Of a DNA stretch of 64,000 bases, positions 740-63,018 are shown one piece after another (positions within the stretch are counted from its first letter, which is position 1; each line of letters begins with the position of its first letter). Origin of the DNA: an uncultured Candidatus Saccharibacteria bacterium (lineage in GTDB: Bacteria; Patescibacteriota; Saccharimonadia; Saccharimonadales; JAUPVS01). The position numbers and the translations under genes are program-made. Below the pieces are notes generated by a model. It did no database searches and had not been told where the DNA came from. It saw only the letters and a list, made by a program, of their open reading frames with translations. Location of the stretch: assembly GCA_964410185.1 (NCBI GenBank), contig CAYPFM010000001.1:16860-80859 (forward strand). Reading direction: 5' to 3'.

Positions 740-918
740 AAGAAAAGCGATTCTCTTCTGAGGGTCGCTTTTCTTTGACCGGAGACAAGCTTGGTTCTGC
801 GACTCGGCTGCTTTAGCAGACGAAAGTCGCAGGGTCGCAGAGCGAAAACACGCGCAGAAGCTTGCTTCGAGCATGATTGAGCGACGGAGGCTTTAGCCGA
901 TATTCCTGTCACCCATCA
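740..918 (+). repeat. tRNA-trailer 'echo' module, Pro copy: hairpin plus conserved core plus degenerate copy of the tRNA-Pro 3' end
   Basis: 12-bp hairpin AAAGAAAAGCGA...TCGCTTTTCTTT at 741-779. Core CACGCGCAGAAGCTTGCTTCGAGCATG at 849-875 is shared with the Thr copy. It ends TCCTGTCACCCATCA (904-918), compared with the tRNA 3' end TCCTGTCACCCCGACCA. Confidence 0.6.
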
Positions 919-5234: not shown

Positions 5235-5530
5235 AGGTACTGCTCCAGCTTAATGTGGCCATTGGTAAAGACCACCCCTTCCTGTTCCAGGTTTTGCTGA
5301 TGGCCCCGGACACCACCCGGATAGCCAGCCGCCATCCCACCCTGCTTGTTAACCACCCGTTGCCATGGCAAGGACTGATCGGCGTTGTGGGCAATCCCAC
5401 CCACGATTCGGGCTGCTCGCGGGCTGCCACAGAGCGCCGCAATTTGGCCGTAGGTCATTACGCGACCTCTGGGAATTTGCGCCACTACCGCCAGCACACG
5501 ATCGCGAAACCCCTGGTCAGGTTTGACCAT
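5216..5530 (-). CDS. MGMT/ATL-family DNA-binding protein (methylated-DNA-protein-cysteine methyltransferase C-terminal-like)
   Basis: FRDRVLAVVAQIPRGRVMTYGQIAALCGSPRAARIVG is the MGMT DNA-binding helix-turn-helix region. The start was moved to M30 (MVKPDQG) to limit overlap with the upstream gene. Confidence 0.7.
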   Translation of the reverse strand: MVKPDQGFRDRVLAVVAQIPRGRVMTYGQIAALCGSPRAARIVGGIAHNADQSLPWQRVVNKQGGMAAGYPGGVRGHQQNLEQEGVVFTNGHIKLEQYLWQPKN

Positions 5531-6132: not shown

Positions 6133-8010
6133 CTACCCGTTATGGCTGGCCTTTATGCCCTGCAGCGAGGTATGCGTGACGCGCCCTTTGGCCTCGTGCG
6201 CCACTGTTTTTAAGAATTCGCTCAGACCAACGGCTTCAGGATTGGTACCAACTTCCATATCCTTGCGGATACGTGGCGTGACCATGCCGGACTCCATCTC
6301 TTTGCCGCCAATAACAATGGTGTACGGCACCTTCATCATCTCGGCCGCCCGGATCTTCTTGCCAACCGATTCGCTGGCATTGTCGACGCTGGCGCGCAGG
6401 CCCAGCTCCTTAGCTTCGGCCAGTAGCTTATTGGCAAACTCAACAGTCTCGTCTTCTTGGTTCAAAGTCGCGATTCTGATCTGTTCGGGAGCCAACCAAA
6501 CCGGGAATTTACCGGCAGTATGCTCGATAAGCAGCATGATGAAGCGTTCGAATGAACCGAGGATGGCGCGGTGGATCATAACCGGCGTCTTGTCGGAGCC
6601 GTCAGTGTCAGTGTAGGTCAACTCAAAACGTTTTGGCATGGCAAAGTCGAGCTGAATGGTTGCCAACTGGGTTTCACGACCCAGGGCATCCTCGAACATG
6701 AAGTCCAGCTTGGGTCCGTAGATAGCTGCCTCGCCTTCCATGCGCTTGGCGTCCAGGTTAAACTTGTCCGAAACAGCCTTAAGCATGGCTTCGGCCTCGT
6801 CCCAGTCGGTTGGTTCACCGATGTAATTAGCGGCGTTTTGAGGGTCTCGCACCGATAGCGACACCCAGTGCTTGCCCCAGAGGCCAAGCTTCTCGTAGAA
6901 CTCCTGAATAATCTGGGCAATCATCGAAGCTTCTTCTTCAATCTGGTCTACCCGGCAGAAGGTGTGGCCATCGTCGACGGTAAAGCCGCGAGTACGCTGC
7001 AGGCCACCGATCTGGCCCGGTTTTTCGTCTCGATACTGCATGGTTTGTTCAACATAACGGAGTGGCAGATCACGATAACTGCGTGGGCGACCAGCATAAA
7101 TCTGGGTGTGGTGCGGGCAGTTAACCGGCTTTAGTACGAATTCTTGGTCGTAATGGCTCTTTACTCGGAATAGTTCCTCTTCGAACTTGTCGGCATGTCC
7201 GGAGATTTTATAGAGGTCAATCTTGGCTAAGTGCGGGATTGACACCTGTAACATGTCATATTGCTGGCTCATCTCCCTAAGGGCTTTCTTGAGCTCTTCG
7301 ATAATGACGGTGCCACGAGGTGTATAGAGCGGCAATCCAGCACCCACCAGGTCAGAGAAAGTAAACAAGTCGAGTTCCTGGCCCAGCTTGCGGTGATCGC
7401 GCGCCTTGGCCTCTTCTTGTTGCTGAAGATAGATACGTAAGTCTTTCTCGTTGGCGAAGGCTACACCATACACCCGTTGCATCTGTGGGTTCCCTTCTTT
7501 ACCACGCCAGTAGGCGCCTCCGACGCGCTGCAGCTGAAAGGCCCCAACCTTGCCGGTGGATTCCACGTGAGGACCACGACAGAGGTCAGTAAAGTCGCCA
7601 TTGGTGTAGAAGCTGACATTCTCTACCTTGCTGTCACCGTCTGTAATCGTACCCAGCTCGTCAGCATCCAGGTCTTTGGCTACAGTGGTGCCGGCTCGCT
7701 TAAGGTCGTTCAACAGCTCCTCCTTGTATGGCTGGCGGTGAGCCTTGGCCCAGGTGATAGCTTCATCAACTGGCTTTTCGGACTTTTCAAACGGCTGGTC
7801 GGCCTTAATGATGGCCTTCATCTCGGCTGAGAGGCGGTCAAAGTCTTCTTCGGACAGCTTTTGGTCGCCCAGATCGATGTCGTAGTAAAAGCCGTCTTTG
7901 ACGACCGGTCCAACACCGAATTTAGCCTCGGGCCAGAGGTGCTGGATGGCGTTTGCCATAATGTGGGCCAGCGAGTGGCGCATTGGATGTAGTTTGTCTT
8001 GGTCAGCCAT
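6133..8010 (-). CDS. thrS: threonine--tRNA ligase (no N-terminal TGS domain)
   Basis: HSLAHIMANAIQHLWP (editing domain), HRKLGQELDLF, and the class II core and anticodon-binding region are recognisable. The protein starts directly at the editing domain. Confidence 0.92.
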   Translation of the reverse strand: MADQDKLHPMRHSLAHIMANAIQHLWPEAKFGVGPVVKDGFYYDIDLGDQKLSEEDFDRLSAEMKAIIKADQPFEKSEKPVDEAITWAKAHRQPYKEELLNDLKRAGTTVAKDLDADELGTITDGDSKVENVSFYTNGDFTDLCRGPHVESTGKVGAFQLQRVGGAYWRGKEGNPQMQRVYGVAFANEKDLRIYLQQQEEAKARDHRKLGQELDLFTFSDLVGAGLPLYTPRGTVIIEELKKALREMSQQYDMLQVSIPHLAKIDLYKISGHADKFEEELFRVKSHYDQEFVLKPVNCPHHTQIYAGRPRSYRDLPLRYVEQTMQYRDEKPGQIGGLQRTRGFTVDDGHTFCRVDQIEEEASMIAQIIQEFYEKLGLWGKHWVSLSVRDPQNAANYIGEPTDWDEAEAMLKAVSDKFNLDAKRMEGEAAIYGPKLDFMFEDALGRETQLATIQLDFAMPKRFELTYTDTDGSDKTPVMIHRAILGSFERFIMLLIEHTAGKFPVWLAPEQIRIATLNQEDETVEFANKLLAEAKELGLRASVDNASESVGKKIRAAEMMKVPYTIVIGGKEMESGMVTPRIRKDMEVGTNPEAVGLSEFLKTVAHEAKGRVTHTSLQGIKASHNG

Positions 8011-21466: not shown

Positions 21467-21510
21467 TATAGACCAAAACTAGGATGTTTGGGACGATACT
21501 TTTTTGGCTG

Positions 21511-21649
21511 CTATGGTTTTTGGAGCGCGATTTAACCAGAACTTAAGAATTCAGATTAAACGAGTTAAGAATTCTACTCCTGTTAAGATTCTTAACTTAA
21601 TTCATCTGAATCATTAAAAACCCATTAAATCGTGCTCCAAAAACCATAG
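21511..21649. mobile_element. MITE-like palindromic element, copy 1 (139 bp)
   Basis: Terminal inverted repeats CTATGGTTTTTGGAGC...GCTCCAAAAACCATAG. The arms pair imperfectly over about 65 bp, with internal TTAAGAATTCAGATTAAA. A second copy lies at 62269-62398. Both are just 3' of a tRNA gene. Confidence 0.7.
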
Positions 21650-21670
21650 TCTACAAAAATGAATGAATGG

Positions 21671-21745: not shown

Positions 21746-21836
21746 GAGTAAGGGACGGCATCGACGTGCTTGCACGGAGATGTCTCACGGCGAGCGAGTG
21801 CCAAGCCGCAGGCTTGGATCCTCGCGAAACAATAAT

Positions 21837-21998
21837 TGGAGCCACCTAGCAGGAGAACGCTGCGCTACCCCCTGCGGGCCATGCTCGAAGTAAACTTCTG
21901 CGCGTGGCTCTGGTGGTCGAACTGCGGCTACGCCGGACAGTTCGCTCCTTCTTGGTTGTTAAATCTTAAAGTACTGCCAAACGGCAATACTTTAAGAT
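21837..21998 (-). repeat. tRNA-trailer 'echo' module, Thr copy: hairpin plus conserved core plus exact 18-nt copy of the tRNA-Thr 3' end
   Basis: In tRNA sense, a hairpin ATCTTAAAGTA.TGCC/GGCA.TACTTTAAGAT (21962-21998) comes first. Next come CGGC-GTA-GCCG, GTTCGA, CACGCGCAGAAG-TTTA-CTTCGAGCATG (21880-21906) and GTAGCGCAGCGTTC. The module ends in TCCTGCTAGGTGGCTCCA (21837-21854), which is identical to 21999-22016. Confidence 0.7.
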
Positions 21999-22074
21999 TG
22001 GAGCCACCTAGCAGGATCGAACTGCTGACCTACACGTTACGAATGTGTCGCTCTACCAACTGAGCTAAGGTGGC
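21999..22074 (-). tRNA. tRNA-Thr (anticodon CGT), CCA encoded, discriminator U
   Basis: Reverse complement: acceptor GCCACCT/AGGTGGC, D arm GCTC-AGTTGGTA-GAGC, anticodon arm ACACA-TTCGTAA-CGTGT, T arm AGCAG-TTCGATC-CTGCT. Confidence 0.9.
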
Positions 22075-30651: not shown

Positions 30652-31770
30652 ATGTTTAAAAAATTAAATCGAGCCCTCGCATTAACAGCCGCAATCGCCC
30701 TGATTGTTGGTTTAGTGGTTGAAGTACCAACTCCCCACTCCGTATCAGCCGCCCAAATTAATAACCGGAGTATCACCTTGCAAGCCGGTGCCACTGATGG
30801 TGGTTCTATGCCCGGTGGCGTCGTGAATCACCTCTTCCAGTTTGATGTTGGTAGTACGGCCAGTGTTGGTTCAATCGACTTCCAGTACTGCACCTTGGCA
30901 ATTGGTACTTGTACAACGCCAACTGGTCTATCAACTACATCTGCAACTATGGGTACGCAAGCTGGTGCGACTGGCTTCTCGCTCGTGAACACCACCAACG
31001 GCGCACCATATCTTACCCGTACGGCGGCCAGCATTAACTCTGGTACCACGCTGTCGTATCAATTACTCAGCGTTACGAACCCAACTACGACGAACCTAAC
31101 CTTCTTTGTTCGTATCAATACCTACGCTTCTACTAATGCCACCGGTAGCCCAATTGACAGCGGTAACGTGGCTGCAAGTACGGCTACTCAGATCGTTCTC
31201 ACCGGAACTATGCCTGAATCGCTCGTCTTCTGTGCTGGTGGCACTATTAGTACCACTGGTGGTGTGCCAGATTGTGCCACCGCAACCTCTGGTGCCGTTA
31301 GCTTTAACCAGCTCTTCTCGCCAACCGATACGGCGACCGCTCTATCGCAGCTCAGCGCCTCGACGAACGCTGGTTCTGGGTATGCCATTACCGTTAATGG
31401 TCCGACCCTGACTTCTGGTAGCAATACCGTCTCGGCTATGGGTGCCTCAACGGCCGGCGTCCATGGTGTCAGTCAGTTTGGCTTGAACCTCAAGGCTAAC
31501 ACCACGGCTACATCGACGATTGCCGTCGGAACTGAAGTTGCTCCAACCTCAAACGGTACCAACTATCGTGGGCAAGCAATCACTGGCTACTCCACCGTCG
31601 ACGCTTTCAAGTTTGTTACTGGCGATACCGTCGCTAACAGTGCCCAAGGTGGTGCTGGTGGTTCGGATGCCCAGATCTTTACGGTTGCTTACATCGTCAA
31701 CGTGCCTGGTAGTCAGCCAGCTGGTACCTACACAACGACCCTTACATACATCTGTACTCCAACCTTCTAA
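30652..31770 (+). CDS. secreted fibre-subunit-like protein, paralogue 2 (372 aa)
   Basis: Signal peptide ending VSA|AQINNRS. Conserved Cys pairs (YCTLAIGTCTTP; FCAGGTISTTGGVPDC). C-terminus FTVAYIVNVPGSQPAGTYTTTLTYICTPTF. Confidence 0.85.
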   Translation: MFKKLNRALALTAAIALIVGLVVEVPTPHSVSAAQINNRSITLQAGATDGGSMPGGVVNHLFQFDVGSTASVGSIDFQYCTLAIGTCTTPTGLSTTSATMGTQAGATGFSLVNTTNGAPYLTRTAASINSGTTLSYQLLSVTNPTTTNLTFFVRINTYASTNATGSPIDSGNVAASTATQIVLTGTMPESLVFCAGGTISTTGGVPDCATATSGAVSFNQLFSPTDTATALSQLSASTNAGSGYAITVNGPTLTSGSNTVSAMGASTAGVHGVSQFGLNLKANTTATSTIAVGTEVAPTSNGTNYRGQAITGYSTVDAFKFVTGDTVANSAQGGAGGSDAQIFTVAYIVNVPGSQPAGTYTTTLTYICTPTF

Positions 31771-31802
31771 ATAGTCTTTTCCACAAAAAGTTCTTATTCT
31801 TT

Positions 31803-31832
31803 TTGACTATCGCTAAAAGCTAATGGTAGTAT
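31803..31832 (+). promoter_or_regulatory. putative promoter giving a leaderless or near-leaderless mRNA for paralogue 3
   Basis: TTGACT, 18 nt, (TGG)TAGTAT, then only TGAGCC before the ATG at 31839. No Shine-Dalgarno sequence. Confidence 0.45.
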
Positions 31833-31838
31833 TGAGCC

Positions 31839-32957
31839 ATGAGCTTCAATAGAAGGGTGCGCGCATCGATTAGTGCTGTTGTTGGCATAGTCTTTGTGCT
31901 GGCGATAAGTTTAATGTCCACCGTCTCTGTTTCTGCGGCCCAAATTAATAACCGTAGCCTAACGCTGCAGGCTGGCGCCACTGATGGTGGCTCCAAGCCC
32001 GGCGGTGTCGTGAATCACCTCTTCCAGTTCGATACCGGTAGCACAAACAGCGTTGGTTCAATTAAATTCGAATACTGTACCTTGGCAATTGGTACTTGTA
32101 CAACGCCAACTGGCCTGGACACAACGTCCGCAACCATGGGTACGCAAGCTGGTGCGACTGGCTTCTCGCTGGTCAATACCACCAACGGCTCACCCTACCT
32201 CACTCGCACAGCAGCCAGCATTACTATTGGTACAACTTTGTCATACCAGCTCTTGAGCGTTACCAATCCAACCACCACGAACCAGACGTTCTTTGTCCGG
32301 ATTAGCACTTACACCGCTACCAACGCAACCGGTAGTGCCCTCGACAGTGGTGTCGTGGCTGCTAGTACGGCAACCCAGGTAGTACTATCGGGGACTATGC
32401 CTGAATCACTCGTCTTCTGTGCTGGTGGCACTATTAGTACCACTGGTGGTGTGCCCGACTGTGCTACTGCCACGAGTGGTGCGGTTAGTTTTAATCAGCT
32501 CTTCTCGCCAACCGATACAGCTACGGCGACATCGCAACTGAGTGCTTCAACCAATGCCGGCTCTGGGTATGCCATTACCGTTAATGGTCCGACCCTGACT
32601 TCTGGTGCTAACACAGTTACCGCTATGGCTTCTGCAACCGCTGGCGTCCATGGTGTCAGCCAGTTTGGCTTGAACCTCAAGGCTAATACCACGGCTACTT
32701 CAACCGTAGCAGTTGGTACTGAAGTTGCTCCCGTATCGAACGGTACCAACTATCGCGGTCAGGCAATCACTGGGTATTCAACAGTTGATGCGTTTAAATT
32801 CGTGTCGGGCAACACCGTCGCCAACAGCGCCCAAGGTGGTGCTGGTGGTTCGGACGCCCAGATCTTTACCGTCGCTTACATCGTTAATGTCCCTGGTAGT
32901 CAGCCAGCGGGTACCTACACAACGACTCTTACATACATCTGTACTCCAACATTCTAG
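31839..32957 (+). CDS. secreted fibre-subunit-like protein, paralogue 3 (372 aa)
   Basis: Near-identical to paralogue 2 over most of its length, including long identical nucleotide runs. Same C-terminal 30 aa. Confidence 0.85.
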   Translation: MSFNRRVRASISAVVGIVFVLAISLMSTVSVSAAQINNRSLTLQAGATDGGSKPGGVVNHLFQFDTGSTNSVGSIKFEYCTLAIGTCTTPTGLDTTSATMGTQAGATGFSLVNTTNGSPYLTRTAASITIGTTLSYQLLSVTNPTTTNQTFFVRISTYTATNATGSALDSGVVAASTATQVVLSGTMPESLVFCAGGTISTTGGVPDCATATSGAVSFNQLFSPTDTATATSQLSASTNAGSGYAITVNGPTLTSGANTVTAMASATAGVHGVSQFGLNLKANTTATSTVAVGTEVAPVSNGTNYRGQAITGYSTVDAFKFVSGNTVANSAQGGAGGSDAQIFTVAYIVNVPGSQPAGTYTTTLTYICTPTF

Positions 32958-32983
32958 CCACCACCCAAAACGTGAGCGGTTTC

Positions 32984-33013
32984 TTTGACGAGCGCTAAAA
33001 GCTAATGGTAGTA
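32984..33013 (+). promoter_or_regulatory. putative promoter giving a leaderless or near-leaderless mRNA for paralogue 4
   Basis: TTGACG, 18 nt, TAGTAT, TGAGCC, then ATG (33021). The block GCTAAAAGCTAATGGTAGTATTGAGCCATGAG is repeated verbatim from paralogue 3. Confidence 0.45.
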
Positions 33014-33020
33014 TTGAGCC

Positions 33021-34139
33021 ATGAGAGTGAGCGGGAGAATACACGCCTGGACTAGTGCTGTTTTTGGCATTATTTTTGTGGTGCTCCTGGCACTTATCCC
33101 AACCAGACCAGTCTTAGCCGCCCAAATTACTGACCGTAGCTTAACTTTGCAGGCTGGCGTCAGTGATGGTGGTTCTAAACCTGGTGGTGTCGTCGATCAC
33201 CTGTTTGCCTTCACCATTGGTTCGACCGCCAGTGTTGGCTCGATTCAGTTTCAGTACTGCACCATCGCCGTTGGTACTTGCACGACACCAACCGGCCTGG
33301 TAACCACCGGCGCCAGTATGGGAACCCAGGCTGGAGCTACTGGTTTTACACTCGTGAACACGACCAATGGCGCACCATACATCACTCGCACAGCAGCAAG
33401 CATATCCAGTAGCACGGCCGTAAGTTACCAGCTTGTAACCGTCACCAACCCGACCACCACCAACCAGACCTTCTTTGTTCGTATCAATACTTACGCCTCG
33501 ACAAATGCCACTGGTAGCCCAATTGACACCGGTGTCGTCGCCGCGAGTACCTCCACGCAGGTAGTTCTGTCGGGGGTGATGCCTGAATCCTTGATCTTTT
33601 GCACCGGTGGAACCGTCAGCACAACTGGGGGCATACCAGACTGCTCAACAGCCACGAGCGGTGCGGTTAGCTTTAATCAGCTCTTCTCGCCTACCTCAGC
33701 GGCCACAGCGACGTCGCAGATGGCTGCCTCGACAAATGCTAGTGCTGGCTATGTTATTAGCGTTAACGGGGCCACAATGACGTCAGGAGCCAATACTATT
33801 ACTGCCCTGACTGCGGCGACAGCAGCTGCGATTGGTAACGGACAGTTTGGGTTGAACCTCGTCACCAATACTACGGCGGCTTCTAGCCCTGCCGTTGGTG
33901 CTGGTATTGCCCCTACCTCAAACGGAACAGACCTCAAAGGTCAGCCACTATCTGGGTACAACACTGCTGATACTTTTAAGTTTAATTCTGGTGATACCAT
34001 CGCCAATAGTGCCGTCAGTGGCGCCGGGCCAACCAATGCGCAGATCTATACAACTTCTTACATCGTCAACGTGCCTGGTAGTCAGCCAGCTGGTACCTAT
34101 ACAACGACATTGACCTATATTTGTACTCCAACATTTTAG
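33021..34139 (+). CDS. secreted fibre-subunit-like protein, paralogue 4 (372 aa)
   Basis: Same architecture and the same C-terminus ...VPGSQPAGTYTTTLTYICTPTF. The middle region is more diverged. Confidence 0.85.
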   Translation: MRVSGRIHAWTSAVFGIIFVVLLALIPTRPVLAAQITDRSLTLQAGVSDGGSKPGGVVDHLFAFTIGSTASVGSIQFQYCTIAVGTCTTPTGLVTTGASMGTQAGATGFTLVNTTNGAPYITRTAASISSSTAVSYQLVTVTNPTTTNQTFFVRINTYASTNATGSPIDTGVVAASTSTQVVLSGVMPESLIFCTGGTVSTTGGIPDCSTATSGAVSFNQLFSPTSAATATSQMAASTNASAGYVISVNGATMTSGANTITALTAATAAAIGNGQFGLNLVTNTTAASSPAVGAGIAPTSNGTDLKGQPLSGYNTADTFKFNSGDTIANSAVSGAGPTNAQIYTTSYIVNVPGSQPAGTYTTTLTYICTPTF

Positions 34140-34185
34140 AAATATTTTCTAAAATACCCCTGTTCATAAAATAGTGGTTATTCTT

Positions 34186-34215
34186 TTGACTATCGCTAAA
34201 TGCTCATGGTAGTAT
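34186..34215 (+). promoter_or_regulatory. putative promoter giving a leaderless or near-leaderless mRNA for paralogue 5
   Basis: TTGACT, 18 nt, TAGTAT, TGAGCC, then ATG (34222). Confidence 0.45.
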
Positions 34216-34221
34216 TGAGCC

Positions 34222-35343
34222 ATGAGAGTGAACGGACGAGGGTTTCTTAGTGTTAGTGCGGCTTTTTCTGCACTACTCTTCGTTATTATGCTAATAACGC
34301 TTCCGATTCAGGCTGCGGCCGCTACACAGATTACTAACCGGAGTTTGACGCTCATAGCCGGCGCCAGCGATGGTGGTTCCAAGCCAAGCGGTGTTGTTAA
34401 CCACTCCTTCACCTTTACCGTTCCTACCGGTGGTAGTGTCGGTTCAATCCAGTTCTTGTACTGTACAACTCCTAGCATTGCCGCCTGTGTCACCCCAACC
34501 GGCTTATCAACAACATCGGCTACCCTAAGCAGCCAGACCGGTGCTACGGGCTTCACGATGGTTAATGGTACTAACGGCGCTCCTTATATTACTCGCACCG
34601 CAGCAACTATTACCGGTGGCACGACGCTCACCTACCAATTAAACACCATCACCAACCCATCCACTGTTGGTCAATTCTTCGTCCGTATTTCGACCTTTAC
34701 CGCGACAAATGCTACTGGTAGTGCAATTGACGCCGGTAGTGTCGCAGCCAGTACGGCTGCTCAGATTGTGCTAACCGGAACCATGCCTGAATCGATTATC
34801 TTCTGTGCTGGCGGTACTATTAGTACTACTTCTGGCATCCCTGACTGTACCACTGCTACCAGTGGTTCAATCACCTTTGCAAACCTGTTCTCCCCGTCTT
34901 CTACAGAAACCGCTACCTCACAAATGGCGGCGTCAACAAATGCCAGCGCGGGGTATGTCATAACCGTCAACGGGGCCACTATGACGTCAGGATCTGCCAC
35001 CATACCCGCCATGAGTACGGCGACAGGCTCGGTTGTGGGAACCAGTCAGTTTGGAATGAACCTGGTAGCGAATACAACTGCCACGTCCACACCAGCGGTC
35101 GGAGCGGCTATCACGGCTGCTTCTAACGGAACCACCTTGAAGGGACAGGCCCTTACCGGTTACAATACTGCTGATGTCTTTAAGTTTGCGTCGGGTGATA
35201 GTGTAGCCAACAGTGCCGTCAGTGGCGCCGGGCCAACCAACTCACAGATTTATACTGCATCTTATATCATTAACGTGAGTGGTGGTCAGCTCGCTGGCAC
35301 CTATACAACAACATTAACTTACATATGTACGGCAACATTTTAA
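34222..35343 (+). CDS. secreted fibre-subunit-like protein, paralogue 5 (373 aa)
   Basis: Same architecture. The C-terminus is diverged to ...VSGGQLAGTYTTTLTYICTATF. Confidence 0.85.
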   Translation: MRVNGRGFLSVSAAFSALLFVIMLITLPIQAAAATQITNRSLTLIAGASDGGSKPSGVVNHSFTFTVPTGGSVGSIQFLYCTTPSIAACVTPTGLSTTSATLSSQTGATGFTMVNGTNGAPYITRTAATITGGTTLTYQLNTITNPSTVGQFFVRISTFTATNATGSAIDAGSVAASTAAQIVLTGTMPESIIFCAGGTISTTSGIPDCTTATSGSITFANLFSPSSTETATSQMAASTNASAGYVITVNGATMTSGSATIPAMSTATGSVVGTSQFGMNLVANTTATSTPAVGAAITAASNGTTLKGQALTGYNTADVFKFASGDSVANSAVSGAGPTNSQIYTASYIINVSGGQLAGTYTTTLTYICTATF

Positions 35344-37624: not shown

Positions 37625-40600
37625 ATGGATTTGGGTTTTCTAAAAACATTCCGGCGGCTTTTGGTATTGGCCATCCTTATGGGTGTCTTTTTTGTGTCCC
37701 TGACCTCTGGTACACGACCGGCTCATGCCTCAACCGGAACCAACCAAACCATTAACTTCCAGGGACGCCTGCTCACCTCGAGTGGCGCGGCCGTACCTGA
37801 TGGCTACTACAACATCCAGTTCAAAATCTACCAAGACGGTGATGGCGCCTCTGTTGGTGATACGACCGGTTCCCCAACAGGGACACTGAAGTGGACCGAA
37901 AACTATCTAAACGTTAATTCCCAAGGTGTCAGAGTCTTTAACGGCTACATGTCTGTCTCGCTCGGTTCAGTCAACCCCTTTGGTAGTAGCGTCGACTGGA
38001 ACCAAAACACCTTGTGGCTGTCGATGAACATCGGTAACACCAATGTATCGTGTGCCAGCTTCGCGGTTTGTTCGCCCGATGGTGAAATGACGCCGATGCA
38101 ACCACTGACGTCAGCCGTTTACGCGCTGAACTCCAACCAACTGGGTGGCTTAACCGCCGCCGCGTTTGGCCAACTGGCTGCTAGCCAGACGTTTGTGGGT
38201 GCTAATATCTTCCAGCCAACCACCAATGTAACAGGGGTAAAAGTAATTCAGAGCTCGGCTGGCGCACCCACTGCCGACATTTTTAATGTTCAGTCGGCCA
38301 ACAATACTAACCTCATCCAAGTAACTGGGCCCGCGGCCAATAGTGCGGCCATAACGCTCAGATCGATAGGCACCGGTAACGCCATTACACTCAATTCGGC
38401 TGGTGCGCTTAGTTTCACCGGAGCCGCGGCTTCGGTTTGGGATATCGGGAATAATACCCTTTCCCTGCAAACCACTAATAATGGCGCCATTACCACCGGT
38501 AGTGGCCTTTTGACTGTTGGGGGAAGCCAAACTTTCTCTGGTGCCAACCCTGTTATCAGCACCAGCACCACTAATACCAACATGACCATTCAAACCAACG
38601 GAACCGGTACGTTAACCCTCAATACCACTGGGGCAGGTACTGTTAACGTTGGTACAACCAACACCACCACCGTCGGAATCGGTAACAATACCTCGGGGAC
38701 AGTCGACACCATCACCGGTGGCTCCACCGCTGTAACCGTTGCCAACGGTGGGACTACTGTTAAAACCAGTACCAACAGCACCACCGCCTTCCAAGTCCAA
38801 AACGCCAGCAACGCCGCTGCCCTGTCGGTCGACACCACCTCACAGCGTGTAGGCATTAACAACTCTGCACCAGGGGCCGCCCTCGAGGTTACCGGTGACA
38901 TCTACCTGACCAAAGAAGCCAACCGCGTCATTAAGGTTGATGCCAGTACCACCGCCAGTACTGCCGGTGGTTCCCTTACCCTAGCCGGTGGAACCGGAAA
39001 CGCCGCAGTTGGTGGTGCTGTGAACATTAACGGTGGTACCGCTATTAATAGCGTCGGTGGAGGTGGCGGTGTGAACATTATTGCCGGTAACGCTGCTTCG
39101 GGTAGTGTCAACGCTGGTGGTAGCGTGGTTATTAATAGTGGTGTTGGGGTAACTGCCGGCGCAATCACCTTACAAACCGCCAACTTCTCTTCTACCTTTG
39201 GTGCCACCAACATCAATACCGGTGGTGGTAAGGTACTCATTGGGAGCGCCAACAACGGCGTCCAGATTGATACTGGACAAAACATTAAAACCAACGGTAC
39301 AAACATTACAGCTAACGCCCTGGCCACTCCTGTTATTAGCACCGGTTCGACTGGTTCAAGCTTCTATTACGGAGTTACAGCAGTTAATGGCCAGGGCGAA
39401 ACAATCCTGAGCAACACCGTTGGTATGGCCAGTAGCAGCGCTACAATCTCTTGGGCAGTAGTACCAGGTGCTACCAGCTATAAAGTCTACCGCAACTCTT
39501 CCAACGTTTTTACTAGCGGTTCATTATTTAGAGCGTCAACCGCGAACGGTTTAACCCTGTCCTACACCGACGACGGCACCGCTACCACCGCGGGTCTCCC
39601 GCCTACTTCGGTAACCGGCACAAAACTAACGGTACAGGGTTGGGCCAGCCAAACAGCCAACCTGCAAGAATGGCAAAACTCGGCCGGATCTGCTCTAGCA
39701 GTAGTCGATATCTCTGGCAACATTACCGCTGCCCGTTTCCGCAGCGATGTCTGGCAAGATACAAACAATAACTCTTGGGCTAGTATTACGGGCACCAGCC
39801 CAAGTAGAACTTTGGCATTTGGTAATGCGAGCATTTCTACTATTTCTATCACCCCAAAGAGTGGCGGCGATATCCAATTAGCTGGTGCAACCAAAGTGAA
39901 TTCAACTGGTACTGCTGGTACAGTCGAGAAATTCCGAGTAAATACCCCGACCACTGTCGATAACAGTGCCGCCTCTATCTTGGCGACCGGTGCCACCACG
40001 AGCAAGGGGCTTGTTATCCAAGGTGCCGCCAGCCAAACAGCCAACCTGCAAGAATGGCAAACCAGCGCTGGTGCTAATATGGTCAGCATTACTGCCGCTG
40101 GCGCCCTGCAGGGTGGCAACGCTTCTGGTACTGATGTTGCTGGTACGACCCTCACCATTGCTGGTGGGCAAGGTACTGGTACCGGTAACGGTGGTAACAT
40201 TCTGTTCCGTTATGCTGCTCCGGGCACCACCGGTGCCAGCAACAACGCTCTTGTTACTGCCTGTACTATTTCTGGCACCAATGGCAGCTTTAGCTGTACG
40301 GGGGCTGGTGCTAGTAGCGAACGCTTTGGAGCTGGTTCAACCGCAGCAGGAACAAGTTCAGTTGCGGTGGGCAACACCGCAGGGGCTTCGGGTAACAACT
40401 CCATCGGAATCGGTGCCGGCAGCAGTGCGTCTTCTACAAACAGCATTTCAATTGGTGCTAGCTCTATTGCACTCAATGGTGGTGGCGCTGGTAATATCGC
40501 TATCGGTAGCAGTGCCACGGCCGGCTGTCTGTTCAGTTGTCCTGGTTCAGTTCGTGACATGATAACCCTTGGTTCTAGTTCAACCACCCAGGGTGACTAC

Positions 40601-43600
40601 GGCATCACCATCGGTAACAGTGCTAGCAACACCGGCTTCAACGGCAGCATCGTCATTGGTACGGGCGCCAGTAACACAGCCGGCAATCAACTGGTAATTG
40701 GTTCTAATACTTCATCGATAACAACTGGCTATATTGGTAATGGCGTAACCAACGCGGCACCTGTTGGGTTTACTTTGAATGCCACCGGTAGCAGCACAGC
40801 CGGCACAACTGGCGGGGCGTTGTCGATTGTTGCTGGGGCGGGCACGAATGCTACTACCGGTAGCAATGGTGGCGCCTTGAACCTACAGGGTGGTGCAGCC
40901 GATAGCTCTAGTGGCACTGGTCGCACCGGTGGCGCCGTCAATATTAACGGTGGCGTTGGTTCACGCAACTTGGCTGGTGGAGCTATTAACTTAACTGGCG
41001 GAACTGGCGGAACTAGTGCCAGCGGTTCTGGCGGTAACGTAGTTATTAACGGTGGTGCGGCCGGTGGTGGTGGTGCTGGTGGTAGCGTTAGTCTACAGGG
41101 TGGCGCAGGCACAACCGGTATTGGCGGTAACTTTACAATTACATCTGGTAACAGCAGCTCAGCGGCCAGTGGCAACCTTTCGCTTGATGTTGGTACGGCT
41201 GGCACAACCACTGGAAGTATCTCAATCGGAGCCAACAACACTAATACTATAGGAATAGGAAACGCGACAGCCGCTACTGCTATTACCATTCAGGGCGGCA
41301 CTGGCTCCAGTGCAATCTCGATCATGTCTGGCGCCGCAGGAACGATTAGGATCGGCGATAATGGCGTCGCCAGCACCGTCCAGATTGGTAATACGACTGG
41401 CGCAGTGACCCAGACAGTTAACATCGGTACTAACCCGACAGCGAGCTCGCAGACAAACGTGACAATCGGCTCAACCATTGGAGCTTCGGCAACCACCATC
41501 ATAAGTGGTACGGGCAACTTGAACCTACAAACGCAAGGTACGGGCAACTTAAACATTGGTGCCAATGCCATCGCCCAAAACATCATTATCGGCAATAGCA
41601 CCGGTGGAACCAATGTTTCCATTAACTGTGGTACCGGCACCTGTGGTCTTGGTACTAACGCAACCGATCACTCCACGACCGTTGGATCGACCACTGGTGT
41701 GTCACTAACGACCATTCAGGGCGGTTCGGCCGGCATCTCGCTGAATGGTGCAGTTTCAACTTCTGGTGCCATAAACGGCGTTACCCTCAGCGCCAGTGCC
41801 CTCACCTTCTCTGGTGCCAACCCAGTTATTGGTGCCAGCACCACTGATACTGGTGTCACACTGCAATCGAATGGAACTGGTACCCTCACCCTGAACTCAT
41901 CTGGCGCCGGTACGGTAAACCTTGGTACCACCAATACCACTACGATCGGCATTGGTAACTCAACTGCGGCCACTGCCGTTACATCAACCGGTGGCGCAAC
42001 CGTACAGACCGTTGCCAACACTGGGGTTACCATCAAAACAAATACCAATAGCATCTCAGCCCTACAAGTTAAGGACAGCAGCAACAACGTTGCCTTTAAT
42101 GTTGATACCACCACTGGCGCCGTTGGCACCGTCAGCACTAGCGCAGCCAGCACGGCTTCACGCGCACTGTTGCTACAGAGTGGTTCCGTCACCGGCACAA
42201 CTTCTAACTCTGGCGATGTAACCCTGCAATCTGGTGGGTCAAGTACTTCTGGTAACAGTGGTGCATTGGCGTTGAAGACCGGTGACGCCGGGGTTGGTAA
42301 CTCTGGTGCCATTAGTCTCGATGTTGGTTCGGCTCCTTCGGGCACGGTTGGCACCATTTCAATTGGTACCAGCAACGCCCGCTCAATCACTATTGGTAAT
42401 ACCTCTAGCGGCACTTCGACCGTTATCAACGGCGGCACGGGCGTTGCTGGAGTTTCGATTCAGTCAGCTGCCAGCGGCGGCATCAGTATTGGTACCAGCG
42501 CTAATACATCTATCTTGTTTGGTACCGGTGCAGTTGGTGGCACTATCAAGATTGGTGGCACCACCCAGACAGGCACAATTACACTCGGCCAATCAACTGC
42601 CAGCAACATCATCGAAATCGGTGGCGGCACCACTAGCAGTGGCAACATTCAGACCGTTAACATTGCTAACGGCACCGGCGCTGGCACAGCTACTAATGTA
42701 AACATCCTCTCGGGTGTTGGGACGGCCGGCACCGGCACCTTGTCACTTGGTAATAATACCCGTGTCACCCAAATCGACCTCGGCAACGTCGCTGCCGCTG
42801 CCGCTAGAACTATCAACGTTGGCACTGGAGCTAATACTGTCGGTATCGACACCATTAATATCGGCACCGGTAGTACTTCGGTGGCTAGCGGTAAGACCAT
42901 CCATATTGGTGATACCGCCCCAACTGGCTCCGGCACCAACGTCCTCACGCTTGGTACTACCGTTAATGCCTCAACCACGACTATTCAGGGTGGTACGGGC
43001 GCTTCGGCCATCGCTCTGACCCAAGCTACCGGTGGTGGCATTGTGATTGGTGGAAGTGGCGCGGCCTCCACCGTATCTGTCCTTTGTGGCGCTGGTACGG
43101 CCACAAGCTGTGGTTTTGCTAATAACGCTACCGACCACAGTACCTATATTGGTTCTGGCACCGGTGTTTCGGTCACCACCATTCAAGGTGGTAGCGGTGG
43201 TGTGGTCATCAACAGCAATACTGCCATTAATGGCACCATTAATAGCAATACCTTTGACGCCAGCACCCTCACCTTCTCTGGTGCTAACCCAGTTATTAGC
43301 GCCAGCACCACAAACACCGGCATCTCCGTCCAAGCCAATGGGACTGGTACGCTGACGCTTAATACTACCGGCGCCGGTACGGTTAATGTTGGCACCACCA
43401 ACACCACCACTGTTGGCATTGGTAACAATACTGCCGCAACTAGTACCACCATTACCGGTGGTACTGGGGCTAACGCCGTTTCAATTCAAACTGGTACGGG
43501 CGGTACCATTAGCTTGGGCACGACTGGTATCGCGAGCACCATCCAAATCGGTACAACCACTGCGGTTGCCACTCAAACCATTGGCATCGGTAACAATGCG

Positions 43601-46600
43601 ACCGCAACTTCTGTTAACAACATCACTATCGGTAACCTGCTGGGCTCTAGCAACACGCTTGTCCAGGGTGGCACCGGCGCCTCAGCCATTGTGTTAGCAC
43701 AAGGCACAGGTGGTGGCGTTGTCATCGGTACCACCGGTGCTGGTTCAACCGTTTCCGTCCAGTGTGGTGCCGGCACGGCAACCACCTGTGGTTTTGCTAA
43801 TAACGCTACCGACCACAGCACCTACGTTGGTTCAGTCAGCGGCGTTTCGGCCACCAACATCCAGAGTGGTACCGGCGGCATTACCTTGAGCGGCAACACC
43901 AGCGTAACGGGCACCTTAGGTACGACTGGCACCATTAATGGTGACACCCTGTCTACCACTGCCCTGACCTTCACCGGCGCCAACCCTGTCATCAGCACGA
44001 CCTCAACAAACTCGGGCTTCACATTACAGGCCAATGGCACTGGTACATTGACCCTGAACACGAGCGGCTCGGGCACCGTCAATGTTGGTACCACCAACAC
44101 CACCACTGTTGCAGTTGGTAATACGGGTGGTGGTGCGACCGTTACTCTGACCGGTGGCGCCACCACAACGACTATTGCCAACTCTGGCGAAACCATTAAG
44201 ACCTCAACCAATAGCAGTACCGCCTTCCAGGTCCAAAATAACGCCGGTGCGGCAATTCTGGCCGTTAATACCAGCACACCGCAAGTATCCTTTACTGCTA
44301 CAGCTGCCAACGCCACAAACGGTACTCCTCTGGTTAATACCAGCTACACCAACACCAGCACCACGGCCGCTCTAGAAGTTGCACAGCAAATTACCCTCAG
44401 TGATACAGGCGTAGTTACTACTGGGCAAGACGAAGCAAACGGAATGGCAATATCCGTAACTCATACTGGCCAAACCGGTGGCACTATATTAACGAAAGGA
44501 ATCTCCGTAACGAGCACCGGCGATAACGCTGGCTCTGGTACATCGGCCAACTGGGCAATCAACGGGTTGGCGGTTGGCTCATCAGATGCTGGCACTGGTG
44601 TTGCCGGCGGCTTTTTGGCGGCTGGTAGTGGCACCACGACTAGTGCCATTGGAACAAGTGGTGGCGTTGGCACATATTTGTTCACTGGGAACGTCGTCAC
44701 TGCAATTGGTGTTCAGGGGGCTATTAGCGCAACCGGTGGCGCCGGTACTATTAGCACGGCTTACGGCATGCAGGTTTCATCTGCTGCTGTCGGCGCCGGC
44801 GGCGCCATTGGAGCCAACTATGGTATTCAAGTTCAGACCCAGACCGTCGGTACCACAAACTATGGTGTTTCGATCGGTACTGCCTCAACCCAAACCCTGC
44901 GAGTTGGCGATGATGCTGATGGAACGACCGCCAATGCCGGCATCAGCTTTGGTGCCACGGCCGGCACGGCTGCAAACCTGTATCGTGGTGGTAACAACCA
45001 GCTCAAGACCGACAGTGACTTCCTGGTAAAATCAGGCACAAACTCAACCTCTGCCCTGTCCGTGCAGAACTCAAGCGGCACTAATATCTTCGCCGTTGAC
45101 ACCATTAACGGCACAGTTGGTACTGTTAAAACTACAACAGCTAGTACAAACTCGCAGGTTCTGACTCTGCAAAGTGGTACCGTGGTTGGCACTGGCTCCA
45201 CCTCCGGTGCAGTCATCCTTCAATCTGGTGCTTCAACAGTATCTGGTGGAACTGGTAACCTTACCCTAGCAACCGGCAACGCTACATCAGGCAGCTCAGG
45301 TAGCATTACCTTAGACGTTGGTTCGGCTACTGGTACATTTGGAAACATAAGCATCGGCACCGTCAATGGCCGAACTATTGGTGTAGGTAATACAACAGCT
45401 GCAACAGCAGTTACTATCCAGGGTGGTACCGGATCATCGGCAATTATCATGAGTCAAGGCGCTGGCGGGGCCATTACCATCGGCGGCTCAGGTGCTGCTT
45501 CCACCGTAGCAGTCCTTTGTGGCGCTGGCACCTCAACAAACTGTGGTTTTGCTAACAACGCTACTGATCACACAACCGTCGTCGGCTCGACTACCGGAAC
45601 CTCTACCACCACTGTTCAGGGCGGGTCTGGCGGCATCACTTTGGCCGCTGGCTCAATCGGCTTGAATGCGGCCACAATCTCAACAAATCAATCAAGCGTT
45701 AGCTTTATGGATACAACAGTTACAACCGTGACGGCTCTCCAATCAGCCACGTCAATCACCATGGGCGCAACTTCTGGCACGCTCACACTGCGCAATGCGG
45801 CCATTACTTTAGGCAGCGCTGCTGGCTCCGGATCGTTCACAAATAATGGTGGAACAACAAATATAACCTTGCCGTTGGGTGACTTCCCAGCCGGCGGTTC
45901 AATTGGAACAAATAGTAGTACAGTTGATATCTACACGTCGATTAGCATCAACCAATCAACGGCTGGCCGAACACTCACCATCCCAACCCCAAGTGCCAAC
46001 ATTACCTATGGTCGCCTGCTCTACTTGTCCAACATTGGTTCGGCCAGCTTTACGCTTGGCAGCGCCACCATTAGTGCCGGCACAACCGCTACCTTGGTTT
46101 GGGCAAACACAACGGGCGGCGCCAGCTGGCAATTTGCCGGTGCTGACGCAGCCTCGATTCTCAACCAAAACAGCATCGACCAAACCGCTAACTTCCGAAT
46201 TAGTGGTACTGGCCGAGCTAATACCAGCTTCACGGCTCCATTATTCGATTCAATCACTGGTGCGGTAGGTGTTGGTACATCGACTGCCTCAGGCGTAAAC
46301 ATTGGTAATGGTACCTCTGGAACCTCAGTTTCGGCCAGTTGTGGTGCCACCGCTACTTGTGGTTTTGGTAATAATGCCACCGACCACACAACTGCCGTCG
46401 GTTCGGCATCCGGTACTTCGGCCACCACTATCAACGCCGGTAGCGCTGGGGTCCTGGCAAAATCAACCAGCACAACTGGCTTCCAGGTACAGAACGCCAG
46501 TGGTACCAGTGTCTTGATTGTCGACACCACCAACCGCCAGCTCAAAGTTATGGAAAATGCTGGTAGCACCAACTACGCCCTGATTTACTACGACACCGCT

Positions 46601-58956: not shown

Positions 58957-58977
58957 CTATGTAAACCCTATGTCTAC
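58957..58977. repeat. two CTATGT(A/C)(A/T)AC direct repeats at the 3' end of the regulator gene
   Basis: CTATGTAAAC (58957-58966) and CTATGTCTAC (58968-58977), the same motif as the array at 60053-60100. Confidence 0.5.
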
Positions 58978-60026: not shown

Positions 60027-60052
60027 AGCGGTGATTATAGCTTCATATTGTT

Positions 60053-60100
60053 TCTATGTCAACTACTTAATTTTCTATGTAAACTCTATGTCGACTATGT
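60053..60100. promoter_or_regulatory. iteron/operator-like array of TCTATGT(C/A)(A/G)AC direct repeats upstream of the regulator gene
   Basis: Repeats start at 60053, 60074 and 60085, with a partial fourth at 60096. Spacing is 21 and 11 nt (helical phasing). Confidence 0.45.
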
Positions 60101-60101
60101 T

Positions 60102-60269
60102 TGGCGGGCCCGACCGGGTGAACGCTGCGCTACTGCCCTGCACCTGGTCTCGGAATGAATTCCTGCGAGCAGGTTTGGCCATCGAACCGGGGCTTCGCCC
60201 TATCCGGTTCAAATCTAGGCGGGAGTCAGCAAAGAAAAAACACCAACATTGCTGCTGGTGTTTTTTCTT
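60102..60269 (-). repeat. tRNA-trailer 'echo' module, Asp copy: hairpin plus conserved core plus exact 16-nt copy of the tRNA-Asp 3' end
   Basis: In tRNA sense, a hairpin AAAGAAAAAACACC...GGTGTTTTTTCTTTG comes first. Next come GGGC-GAA-GCCC, GTTCGA, CTCGCAGGAA-TTCA-TTCCGAG and GTAGCGCAGCGTTC. The module ends in CCGGTCGGGCCCGCCA (60102-60117), identical to 60270-60285. Confidence 0.7.
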
Positions 60270-62268: not shown

Positions 62269-62398
62269 CTGCTATGGTTTTTGGAGCATGACTTAACGAG
62301 TTTTTAAGAATTCAGATTAAATAACTTCAGAATGTTATTAACTTAGTTAATCTGAATTCTTACCTTTTGGTTAAATGGCGCTCCAAAAACCATAGCAG
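62269..62398. mobile_element. MITE-like palindromic element, copy 2 (about 130 bp)
   Basis: 19-bp perfect terminal inverted repeats CTGCTATGGTTTTTGGAGC...GCTCCAAAAACCATAGCAG. Inner palindrome AAGAATTCAGATTAA...TTAATCTGAATTCTT. It lies 38 nt 3' of tRNA-Arg. Confidence 0.7.
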
Positions 62399-62944: not shown

Positions 62945-63018
62945 GAATTTCCTTTGCTTATTTCGCCTTATTGTAACAGGTACGGCTGGGGCTGGACAAT
63001 GTGTCGTACAATATAGTT

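Follow-up and report, generated by a model that had tools for sequence, protein, structure and literature searches.

A gene-free hairpin module with a terminal copy of the tRNA 3' end: a putatively mobile DNA family behind tRNA genes of Saccharimonadales

Why does the 3' end of a tRNA gene occur a second time, a short distance behind the gene itself? The question is raised by a stretch of 64,000 nt from contig CAYPFM010000001.1 of an uncultured Candidatus Saccharibacteria bacterium (the window, meaning this whole stretch at its full length). On its minus strand, the 162 nt directly 3' of tRNA-Thr(cgt) (21998-21837) terminate in TCCTGCTAGGTGGCTCCA, a sequence present exactly twice in the window, at the tRNA 3' end (21999-22016) and at 21837-21854; shuffled sequences gave 0.03 matches. 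The repeat, called the echo here, begins within the T-loop, at nucleotide 59, and confirms the exact 18-nt copy with a break inside the T-loop that a first-pass annotation had described from the letters alone. The reading proposed here, which has about an even chance of being correct, is that a family of miniature mobile DNA modules, gene-free and lineage-specific, occupies tRNA 3' ends, and that the region is one of its copies. The locus is composed of the following features.

21999-22074, minus strand: intact tRNA-Thr(cgt), called by ARAGORN and by the Rfam tRNA model (62.2 bits); its nucleotides 59-76 are the source of the echo
21963-21998, minus strand: H1, a 36-nt hairpin right behind the CCA, ATCTTAAAGTATTGCCG-TTT-GGCAGTACTTTAAGAT (sequence and fold)
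21937-21962, minus strand: 5' arm, matching the tRNA 3' part in inverted and decayed form (read from the sequence and from family-wide alignments to the reverse-complemented cognate tRNA)
21925-21935, minus strand: apical hairpin A, CGGC-GTA-GCCG (sequence and fold; Asp counterpart GGGC-GAA-GCCC)
21918-21924, minus strand: direct copy of the T-stem 5' strand and T-loop start, CAGTTCG, forming the left border of the core (sequence)
21855-21917, minus strand: core of 63 nt, subtype b (pattern match and covariation across 114 cores)
21887-21898, minus strand: hairpin B of the core, GAAG-TTTA-CTTC (sequence)
21837-21854, minus strand: echo, an exact copy of tRNA-Thr nucleotides 59-76 (exact match)
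21746-21836, minus strand: older Thr-Gly spacer outside the module, homologous to the sequence right after tRNA-Thr in module-less relatives

The echo comprises two T-loop bases, the T-stem 3' strand, the acceptor 3' strand, the discriminator and the CCA. The 5' arm, AGGAGCGAACTG, matches the reverse complement of the T-arm, AGGATCGAACTG, and its inner part pairs with CAGTTCG to form a stem, S1. With its flanking bases, the left-border copy extends to GCAGTTCGA, 9 nt identical to the tRNA. The core itself is built of a stem P2 (GCCAC/ATGGC), an internal loop (C-GCA-G/C-GA-G), hairpin B and a 3' segment, GCAGGGGGTAGCGCAGCGTTC. The direct T-stem copy, the inverted T-arm copy, the position of the core in the T-loop and its strand-symmetric pairing are features that the first-pass annotation had missed. 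Two other identities for these parts were considered and rejected. A degenerate direct second copy of the tRNA does not fit, as the 5' arm matches the T-arm reverse complement and not the D-arm. A retroviral-type primer-binding site came to mind as the 18 nt are exactly the span that a reverse transcriptase copies up to m1A58; against it, the echo lies in the tRNA sense, no reverse transcriptase was seen and the inverted arm reads past nucleotide 58.

Two further tRNAs of the window are followed by the same architecture.

60102-60269, minus strand: module of tRNA-Asp(gtc), with H1 at 60232-60269, GTTCG at 60183-60187, core at 60118-60182 and echo at 60102-60117
740-918, plus strand: module of tRNA-Pro(ggg), subtype c, with H1 at 740-777, GGTCG at 833-837, core at 838-903 and a decayed echo at 904-914

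The recurrence behind Asp and Pro had already been noticed and holds: the Asp echo is an exact copy of 16 nt of the tRNA-Asp end, and the decayed Pro echo retains 11 nt, TCCTGTCACCC. All three modules align and have GKTCG-N15-CGCAG-(4 bp)-(tetraloop)-(4 bp)-CGAG in common, while the sequence earlier reported as shared by the Thr and Asp cores right before the tail is the 14-mer GTAGCGCAGCGTTC. The remaining tRNAs of the window (Val, Gly and Arg) carry no module. The Pro module is orthologous to that of locus L008 in another genome, with 83% identity over 133 nt.

If the module is an insertion, relatives should exist in which the site is empty. Orthologous Thr loci were fetched via the neighbouring glycosyltransferase, and at all of them tRNA-Thr(cgt) is identical or nearly so (the relatives L116, L118 and L124 have exactly the sequence of the window). 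Empty loci, whose search had been proposed with the initial observation, were found: tRNA-Gly(ccc) starts 5 nt (L116) and 2 nt (L120) behind tRNA-Thr, and in L122 the CCA of tRNA-Thr directly meets a spacer homologous to the post-echo sequence of the window. The tight Thr-Gly pair is also present in L012, L087 and L094. Because these orthologous loci are empty, the window carries an insertion of 162 nt that includes one copy of the 18-nt repeat, and H1, missing from L116, L120 and L122, counts as inserted DNA. The closest relative, L118 (84% protein identity), possesses a module at tRNA-Thr with a 19/19 echo and related arms and rod (the paired part of the core described below), and its H1 is wholly different from that of the window, to the point of being unalignable.

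The module can also be absent in another way. Locus L125 contains a subtype-b core, a truncated echo (TCCTGCTAGGT) and a spacer. The spacers of its close relatives L124 and L127 differ from it, by reading, at 2 and 0 positions in 87 nt, and these two loci lack the module: the tRNA with its CCA is followed by AA, by ATCCTGCTCGGT or ACCTGCAAGGC, a decaying 12-nt remnant of the echo, and by the spacer. Hence, a unit running from H1 to the core is present or absent at the same borders in two lineages: its left border falls just behind the CCA, and its right border is where core and echo join. The echo remnant stays behind and decays. L124 and L125 belong together by their downstream sequence, which implies that the unit was lost twice independently, or was lost once and regained once. 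Excision between two att sites would leave a single att copy, and here the picture is mixed, with clean empty sites in L116, L120 and L122, but with tRNA and echo remnant kept in L124 and L127. Partial tRNA copies without a core were encountered only in L124 among 181 tRNAs, L127 having been fetched afterwards; of two patterns searched in metagenomes for the L124/L125 junction, the first gave 0 matches and the second a single locus, L127. As a separate observation, the contig of the module-bearing strain L125 begins inside the core (position 1), which suggests that the modules, or their presence/absence polymorphism, break metagenome assemblies.

How widespread is the family? The search for more copies in related genomes, set beforehand as a test, returned at least 114 loci in a core-pattern scan that covered one genome per species, where about 2 chance matches were expected. 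These loci, from more than 110 genomes, belong nearly all to metagenome-assembled genomes (MAGs) of Saccharibacteria/Saccharimonadales. Among the 116 pattern matches listed, 88 have a tRNA on the same strand ending 63-105 nt upstream of the GKTCG box, and these modules cover 17 amino-acid specificities; most other matches are cut off by locus ends. A hidden Markov model (HMM) of the core places a module behind 97 of the 151 tRNAs of these loci and adds tRNA-Ala, and several more modules, with CGCACAG instead of CGCAG or with unrelated cores, add tRNA-Gly. In total, at least 19 tRNA specificities are followed by modules in Saccharimonadales.

The echo is specific for the tRNA that it follows. 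In 85 related modules, the tail is identical to the cognate tRNA at 18/18 positions in 30 cases and at 15/18 or more in 50, whereas tails of non-cognate tRNAs, used as controls, reach at most 15/18. Exact echoes extend up to 19 nt, from A58, with a single exception of 22 nt, and the distance between tRNA end and echo end has a median of 171 nt (range 143-192). About 35% of the echoes are badly decayed despite intact cores. Echo identity was correlated neither with core score (rho 0.16, p 0.14), a test biased by the pattern-based selection of the cores, nor with the length of the left-flank copy; therefore, no common signal of age is apparent.

In Rfam 15, only the tRNAs reach the gathering score, and the Thr, Asp and L078 modules give nothing credible up to an E-value of 10; no description of this module family was found in the searched literature, in line with the statement of the first-pass annotation that it knew of no such element. 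Small mobile insertions without genes that sit at tRNA genes and bring a repeat of the 3' end are already known as a general kind. The architecture, the clade-wide spread over tRNA types and the cassette in the T-loop are undescribed in Rfam or the searched literature. Viral contigs gave 0 matches to the core pattern, and an exact-match lookup of the neighbouring 122-aa protein returned the same strain only.

Several variants were encountered beside the typical modules. At L065 (5498-5680), L108 (3' of tRNA-Pro-cgg) and L032 (1865-2090), the same layout of hairpin, inverted T-arm piece and perfect 17-22 nt echo surrounds cores that are very short or unrelated, so that insertions of the echo type extend beyond the family with the CGCAG hairpin. 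In L118 (2543-2620) and L120 (2154-2230), tRNA-Gly(ccc) is followed by a mini-module that looks like an internally deleted module: a hairpin precedes about 30 nt (TGGGAGAGTAGAG...GCAGCGAGT) that recall the 3' end of a subtype-b core, and a perfect 19-nt echo, ATTCTCGTATCTCGCACCA, follows. Upstream of Asn-type modules, the expected position of tRNA-Asn is occupied in L054 (~2790-2870), L079 (~5350-5430) and L095 (~7560-7640) by a conserved piece of about 75 nt ending in ...GGTTCGTGACCTGTATGGGGAGCCA and containing a CTGTTAA anticodon-like loop. Neither ARAGORN nor Rfam calls a tRNA in this piece, which may be an aberrant or degenerate tRNA-Asn. The LOOT RNA (RF03000) matches above its gathering score at L069 1795-1919 and at L078 1-94 (minus strand), the latter immediately downstream of two tandem modules.

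Across the family, the order of parts is tRNA, H1, 5' arm, apical hairpin, direct copy with GTTCG, core, and tRNA nucleotides 58/59-76. H1 is a terminator-type hairpin, flanked by A-rich sequence on its 5' side and by U-rich sequence on its 3' side. In many copies, the 5' arm repeats the tRNA 3' part in inverted orientation: its inner section is the reverse complement of about nucleotides 41-57 (perfect over 17 nt in L002), and its outer section is always decayed or substituted by a small hairpin, H2. The apical hairpin is often GGCGNAGCC, a sequence seen again in modules behind other tRNAs. The direct left-flank copy, consisting of variable loop, T-stem 5' strand and GTTCG, is identical to the cognate tRNA over up to 13 nt; cognate copies of at least 8 nt occur in 32/85 modules vs. 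2/425 controls.

The core measures 62-95 nt, and the direct tRNA-derived pieces meet it exactly at the junction between T-loop nucleotides 57 and 58, with zero duplicated bases at its borders in the best-preserved copies. The core hence lies precisely within the T-loop of an incomplete tRNA copy. Its left flank is always GKTCG, but GKTCG was part of the search pattern; its right flank begins with A58. Three subtypes are told apart by their 3' parts. Subtype a, a single rod, ends in ...GCAGAUGUGCAUU before AUCC, and subtype b, which includes the Thr and Asp copies of the window, ends in ...GCAGGGAGUAGCGAAGCGUUC before AUCC. Subtype c, which includes the Pro copy, has GGUCG..., an extra 3' hairpin and the end ...GAU before AGUCC, and it accompanies tRNAs with a TTCAAGT T-loop. 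Compared with the single rod of subtype a, both b and c consist of a rod and a 3' hairpin. The unit ends (an A-rich H1 start, and cores ending in ...GTTC, ...CATT or ...GAT) display no terminal inverted repeats by inspection of the listed sequences; no formal search was made.

Is the hairpin of the core real, and in which molecule does it fold? The tested rod model consists of P1, an AA/GCA loop, P2, a C/A mismatch, 2 bp, a GCA/GA loop and hairpin B, and was scored on an ungapped alignment of 114 distinct cores. In this alignment, 86.3% of the cells are paired vs. 61.5% in shuffles, and the covariation score is 0.61 vs. 0.18, with 0/500 shuffles as high; when the model is slid by 1-3 columns as a control, the score drops to 0.08-0.15. 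Hairpins A and B are as first reported, and the three compensated pairs noticed then generalise. At positions that the search pattern left free, columns 18/42 hold GC 42, UA 35 and AU 32 times, and columns 20/40 hold GC 51, UA 45, AU 9 and CG 5 times. The asymmetric internal loops (GCA/GA and AA/GCA) are conserved across more than 100 cores. G·U (38) and A·C (31) occur at similar numbers among the rod pairs, so that no excess of G·U is visible. Minimum free energies (MFE) of the two strands separate the parts of the module; G·U counts are given as sense vs. antisense.

Core: sense -17.98, antisense -17.90 kcal/mol (p 0.9); G·U 70 vs. 68
H1: sense -19.1, antisense -14.3 kcal/mol (p 1e-9); G·U 89 vs. 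5
Arms: sense -16.1, antisense -14.2 kcal/mol (p 2.5e-4); G·U 51 vs. 22
Adjacent tRNAs (control): sense -30.8, antisense -28.2 kcal/mol (p 1e-5); G·U 116 vs. 50

On the tRNA strand, H1 and the arms would accordingly have the form of RNA, with roles as terminator and trailer structures. For the core, since its pairs are kept by strict Watson-Crick compensation without strand bias, we infer maintenance as folded DNA, a single-strand hairpin or a cruciform, or else a need to fold on both strands.

The transcription context has to be weighed here. A promoter scan of the three window modules on both strands revealed no promoter-like site inside them. A promoter-like site (10/12 matches) is located at 22129-22101, just upstream of tRNA-Thr; as it is the only one and precedes the tRNA, the Thr module is probably co-transcribed in a Thr-Gly unit. 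The modules could then be functional tRNA-trailer RNAs, read through from the tRNA promoter and selected by the host, which would fold into H1, H2/S1 and rod and present the tRNA's own 3' sequence, possibly as a decoy, as a processing or quality-control element or as a sponge for factors that bind tRNA 3' ends. The strand signature of arms and H1 is of RNA type, that of the arms being comparable to real tRNAs; the echo is perfect in two diverged copies (window and L118), the window and L008 have a conserved Pro module, and the rod displays compensatory changes. Given the flank signature, the probable co-transcription and the perfect echoes, this explanation is a serious rival, albeit an unlikely one. 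The conserved core, on the contrary, lacks both G·U excess and strand bias, and at most loci H1 resembles an efficient terminator upstream of the rest. Moreover, the echo is dispensable (the badly decayed third stands beside intact cores, with no correlation to core score), as is the module, which several close relatives lack at the same tRNA; cores are swapped between loci and genomes, and Rfam has no match. The earlier suggestion of a tRNA-mimic small RNA is therefore not supported for the core, which has no G·U excess, strand bias or promoter of its own, although the flanking hairpins are of RNA type and co-transcription in the Thr-Gly unit is probable.

Promoter-like sequences were also observed right behind the Asp echo, where four ACATAG(A) repeats (minus strand, 60034-60100) overlap a perfect sigma-70 promoter, TTGACA-17-TATAAT (12/12). 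This promoter drives the gene at 58974-60026, which encodes a protein of 350 aa with HATPase and STAS-like (DUF4325) domains.

Cores move between tRNAs and between genomes. The core behind tRNA-Leu-caa in L078 and the one behind tRNA-Glu-ctc in L086 are 97.5% identical over 80 nt, in a block bounded by GGTTCG and ATTCC, with unrelated arms around it, and coding DNA common to the two loci is only 70-71% identical. The arms of L086 are homologous to those of the Glu-ctc module of L040, with compensated changes in H2, and the core subtypes of these two differ. In one MAG, the Arg (L047) and Met (L062) modules are 93% identical over the generic arm and the core, and in L021 two Leu modules have identical cores, yet tRNA-specific tails and outer arms. 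The GCGCAGCG variant of the Thr/Asp 14-mer was not seen in subtype-b cores of other genomes. Gene conversion within a genome cannot account for the identity of the L078 and L086 cores.

Modules also accumulate in arrays. Tandem units are found in L078 (98.9% identical), L002 and L093, and some modules have no intact upstream tRNA. The array of L097 consists of a tRNA, a module, an open reading frame (ORF) of 79 aa, a partial echo and two further modules. This ORF (2715-2954), a putative membrane protein between the echo of module A and the partial echo before modules B and C, appears to be cargo within the array.

An origin without any dedicated enzyme is also conceivable, if replication switched templates at tRNA hairpins and gene conversion acted there. 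The nascent strand would then exit the tRNA at the CCA or terminator, copy a core template via GGTTC...ATCC microhomology and re-enter at nucleotide 58, yielding direct-inverted-direct partial triplications, while palindrome-correcting switches would keep the hairpins. The direct/inverted/direct layout has its hairpins, H1 and the apical one, at the turning points; H1 resembles the post-echo terminator at L013, L063 and L078; the borders are the only sequences common to all tRNAs; and the 3' junction of the core follows the T-loop type (...GAT before AGTCC with TTCAAGT loops). The strand-symmetric pairing, the near-identical tandem units of L078 and the failure to find an enzyme are in agreement with such a process too. 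It is nevertheless rather unlikely. It leaves unexplained the asymmetric loops conserved in more than 100 cores, the 97.5% core identity between genomes that are about 70% identical and the restriction to one bacterial order when T-loops are universal. In addition, coreless partial tRNA copies exist only as the remnants of L124 and L127 among the 181 tRNAs.

A dedicated enzyme has been looked for. Clustering of the ORFs within 4 kb of about 119 modules yielded no recurrent protein family, none of about 130 modules has a linked transposase, integrase, reverse transcriptase or Cas1, no full-length parent element turned up, and viral contigs gave no copies. In the window, Pfam scans covered 40 ORFs, found housekeeping genes and placed no integrase next to the three modules; no Y1 HUH transposase (TnpA) was seen within the 64 kb. 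The sole recombinase is of the Xer type (63001-63939, plus strand, 312 aa, Phage_integrase and SAM-like N domains), encoded about 0.8 kb from tRNA-Arg, and may be a housekeeping XerC/D.

These searches bear on the most conventional explanation, that the modules are the attR-side ends of large tRNA-integrated islands or prophages with deleted interior. Tyrosine integrases that target T-loops classically leave a direct repeat of 18-19 nt spanning T-loop to 3' end, and arrays with cargo exist (L097). This explanation is nevertheless highly improbable, and the first-pass annotation's own alternative of deleted ordinary islands is not supported: the size is uniform, the same architecture is found behind at least 19 tRNA types, about 130 loci contain no integrase remnants, copies on viral contigs are lacking, the conserved part is a covarying hairpin rather than arm-type sites, and in L124 and L127 the unit was lost while the echo was kept.

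Mobile DNA modules, as proposed above, would operate as follows. An enzyme with its gene elsewhere in the genome would recognise the rod as folded DNA (single-strand hairpin or cruciform), and the target would be the universally conserved T-loop (GGTTCG, then A-N-TCC across the junction) and the CCA end. As T-loop and CCA supply the target and the echo derives from it, one family could stand behind every kind of tRNA with an echo that is always cognate. Transcribed together with the tRNA, H1 and the arms would act as terminators or RNA structures and so preserve the function of the real tRNA. Candidate mechanisms are an IS200/IS605-like HUH single-strand transposition 3' of TTCG without duplication, a T-loop integrase acting on a folded site, or an enzyme-free copy-choice on T-loop/CCA microhomology. 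Recognition at the DNA level by a trans-acting enzyme and the derivation of the inverted and direct partial tRNA copies are the conjectural parts of this proposal.

Several observations weigh against it besides the fruitless search for an enzyme or parent element. About one third of the modules carry tRNA-specific left copies and inverted arms, which a simple transposon would not bring, and no terminal inverted repeats were seen. The identity of cores within a genome could result from gene conversion. The strand symmetry could equally be produced by palindrome-correcting template switches or by a need to fold on both strands, and composition effects and palindrome-correcting mutation could contribute. 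The 83% identity of the Pro modules of the window and L008 suggests retention over turnover. Finally, the Thr modules of the window and L118, probably orthologous, combine perfect echoes with an unalignable H1, a hint of selection on the echo.

The initial interpretation as a miniature integrative element, of the type of a cis-mobilizable element (CIME) or a miniature inverted-repeat transposable element (MITE), thus stands in part. T-loop targeting, duplication of the att core, empty sites and multiple copies agree with it; the lack of an integrase or transposase and of visible terminal inverted repeats, the loss of the unit with retention of the echo (L124, L127) and the restriction of exchange to the core of 62-95 nt do not. 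This exchangeable part could be a new type of selfish DNA in its own right, a hairpin cassette homing to T-loops, for which the chance is substantial although well below even. Such a cassette would insert precisely between T-loop nucleotides 57 and 58 and be recognised as a folded single strand by an enzyme; because insertion into a real tRNA would be lethal, it would persist only in sacrificial partial tRNA copies at the 3' ends of the genes.

Other known systems were compared and set aside. A derivative of DDE transposons, i.e., a MITE in the strict sense, shows terminal inverted repeats, absent here by inspection, and a short target-site duplication of fixed length, whereas the repeat is here 18-19 nt of tRNA. 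A guide RNA of the TnpB/Cas12 omega-RNA type is superficially similar (a scaffold, then 18-19 nt, with TTCG as the would-be target-adjacent motif, TAM), but the perfect target would be the adjacent essential tRNA, there is no linked TnpB-like gene, and decay has affected many tails. The analogy with the IS110 bridge RNA fails for want of a recombinase gene, and the geometry of an archaeal bulge-helix-bulge intron, a K-turn or domain V of a group II intron does not fit by eye.

A second, unrelated miniature element of about 125-155 bp does resemble a classical MITE. It is present in the window at ~21495-21650 and ~62272-62396, just 3' of tRNA-Gly and tRNA-Arg, respectively, and has terminal inverted repeats of about 25 bp (CTATGGTTTTTGGAGCrCGAyTTAA ... 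TTAAATsGCGCTCCAAAAACCATAG). The remaining proteins of the window include type IV pilus and secretion-ATPase proteins, ATP synthase subunits, ThrRS, MiaA and TGT. On the plus strand, four tandem paralogous ORFs of about 372 aa (30652-35343), each behind a repeated promoter-like leader, are followed by an ORF of 3492 aa rich in internal repeats (37625-48103); none has a Pfam match, and they probably encode surface proteins.

If the mobile-module reading is true, a whole order of ultra-small, host-dependent bacteria harbours pervasive, unnoticed elements behind most tRNA genes. It may then point to a single-strand DNA recombinase or transposase that reads the T-loop/CCA signature and can be retargeted to any tRNA or, alternatively, to an enzyme-free spread of hairpins on universal tRNA microhomology. 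Were the T-loop cassette real, most tRNA genes of the order would bear a structured, partly transcribed appendix with a copy of their own 3' end, and were the RNA explanation correct, a new class of tRNA-linked regulatory RNA would be at hand. For practical purposes, the family accounts for breaks between contigs and for strange 'tRNA fragments' seen in assemblies of Saccharibacteria, serves as a marker for strain-level insertion polymorphism and cautions against calling echoes prophage att sites.

Among known systems, tRNA-targeting integrative elements and their integrase-less derivatives, such as CIMEs, are close to the modules. As with those, the modules lie at the 3' part of the tRNA, leave the tRNA intact, displace a copy that starts in the T-loop to the far border, accrete in tandem and have empty sites in relatives. 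Unlike those, they are gene-free, measure only 145-190 bp, serve essentially all tRNA species with one family and no linked integrase, can lose the unit while leaving both repeats, and conserve a hairpin cassette in a T-loop copy instead of arm-type binding sites. In mycobacteriophage Ms6, the attP core matches the 3' end of tRNA-Ala, sets the tRNA that is used and can be retargeted (PMC1762012).

IS200/IS605 elements and PATEs, and similarly the REP/REPIN sequences moved by RAYT, resemble the modules in other respects. The core lies directly 3' of TTCG in a fixed orientation and without duplication, no terminal inverted repeats are seen, imperfect hairpins with conserved unpaired bases would be maintained at the DNA level, and multi-copy, gene-free modules would be mobilised in trans. 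The differences are that no TnpA, TnpB or RAYT gene was seen, that subtype a forms one rod from two halves rather than separate end hairpins, that the element is confined to partial tRNA copies and that insertion of the whole module brings a repeat of 18-19 nt.

IS91 elements, of 1.5-2 kb and with a Y2 HUH transposase, insert next to GTTC/CTTG without target duplication. The likeness is limited to the target tetranucleotide, as the T-loop contains GTTC and TTCAAGT loops also contain CAAG; neither such a transposase gene nor such ends were seen here. Casposons integrate at the 3' ends of tRNA genes with a target duplication of 14-15 bp. The repeat-insert-repeat order of casposon/Cas1 arrays recalls the tandem modules, which are, however, 100-fold smaller, lack Cas1 and visible terminal inverted repeats, and have a repeat of 18-19 nt. 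Functional tRNA trailers, such as the 3'ETS-leuZ sponge of E. coli, and tRNA-like RNAs share with the modules the position 3' of a tRNA in the same unit and the RNA-biased flanking hairpins. The modules differ from them in having no Rfam match, in their insertion polymorphism, in carrying a copy of the 3' end of their own tRNA and in a core that is strand-symmetric and exchangeable.

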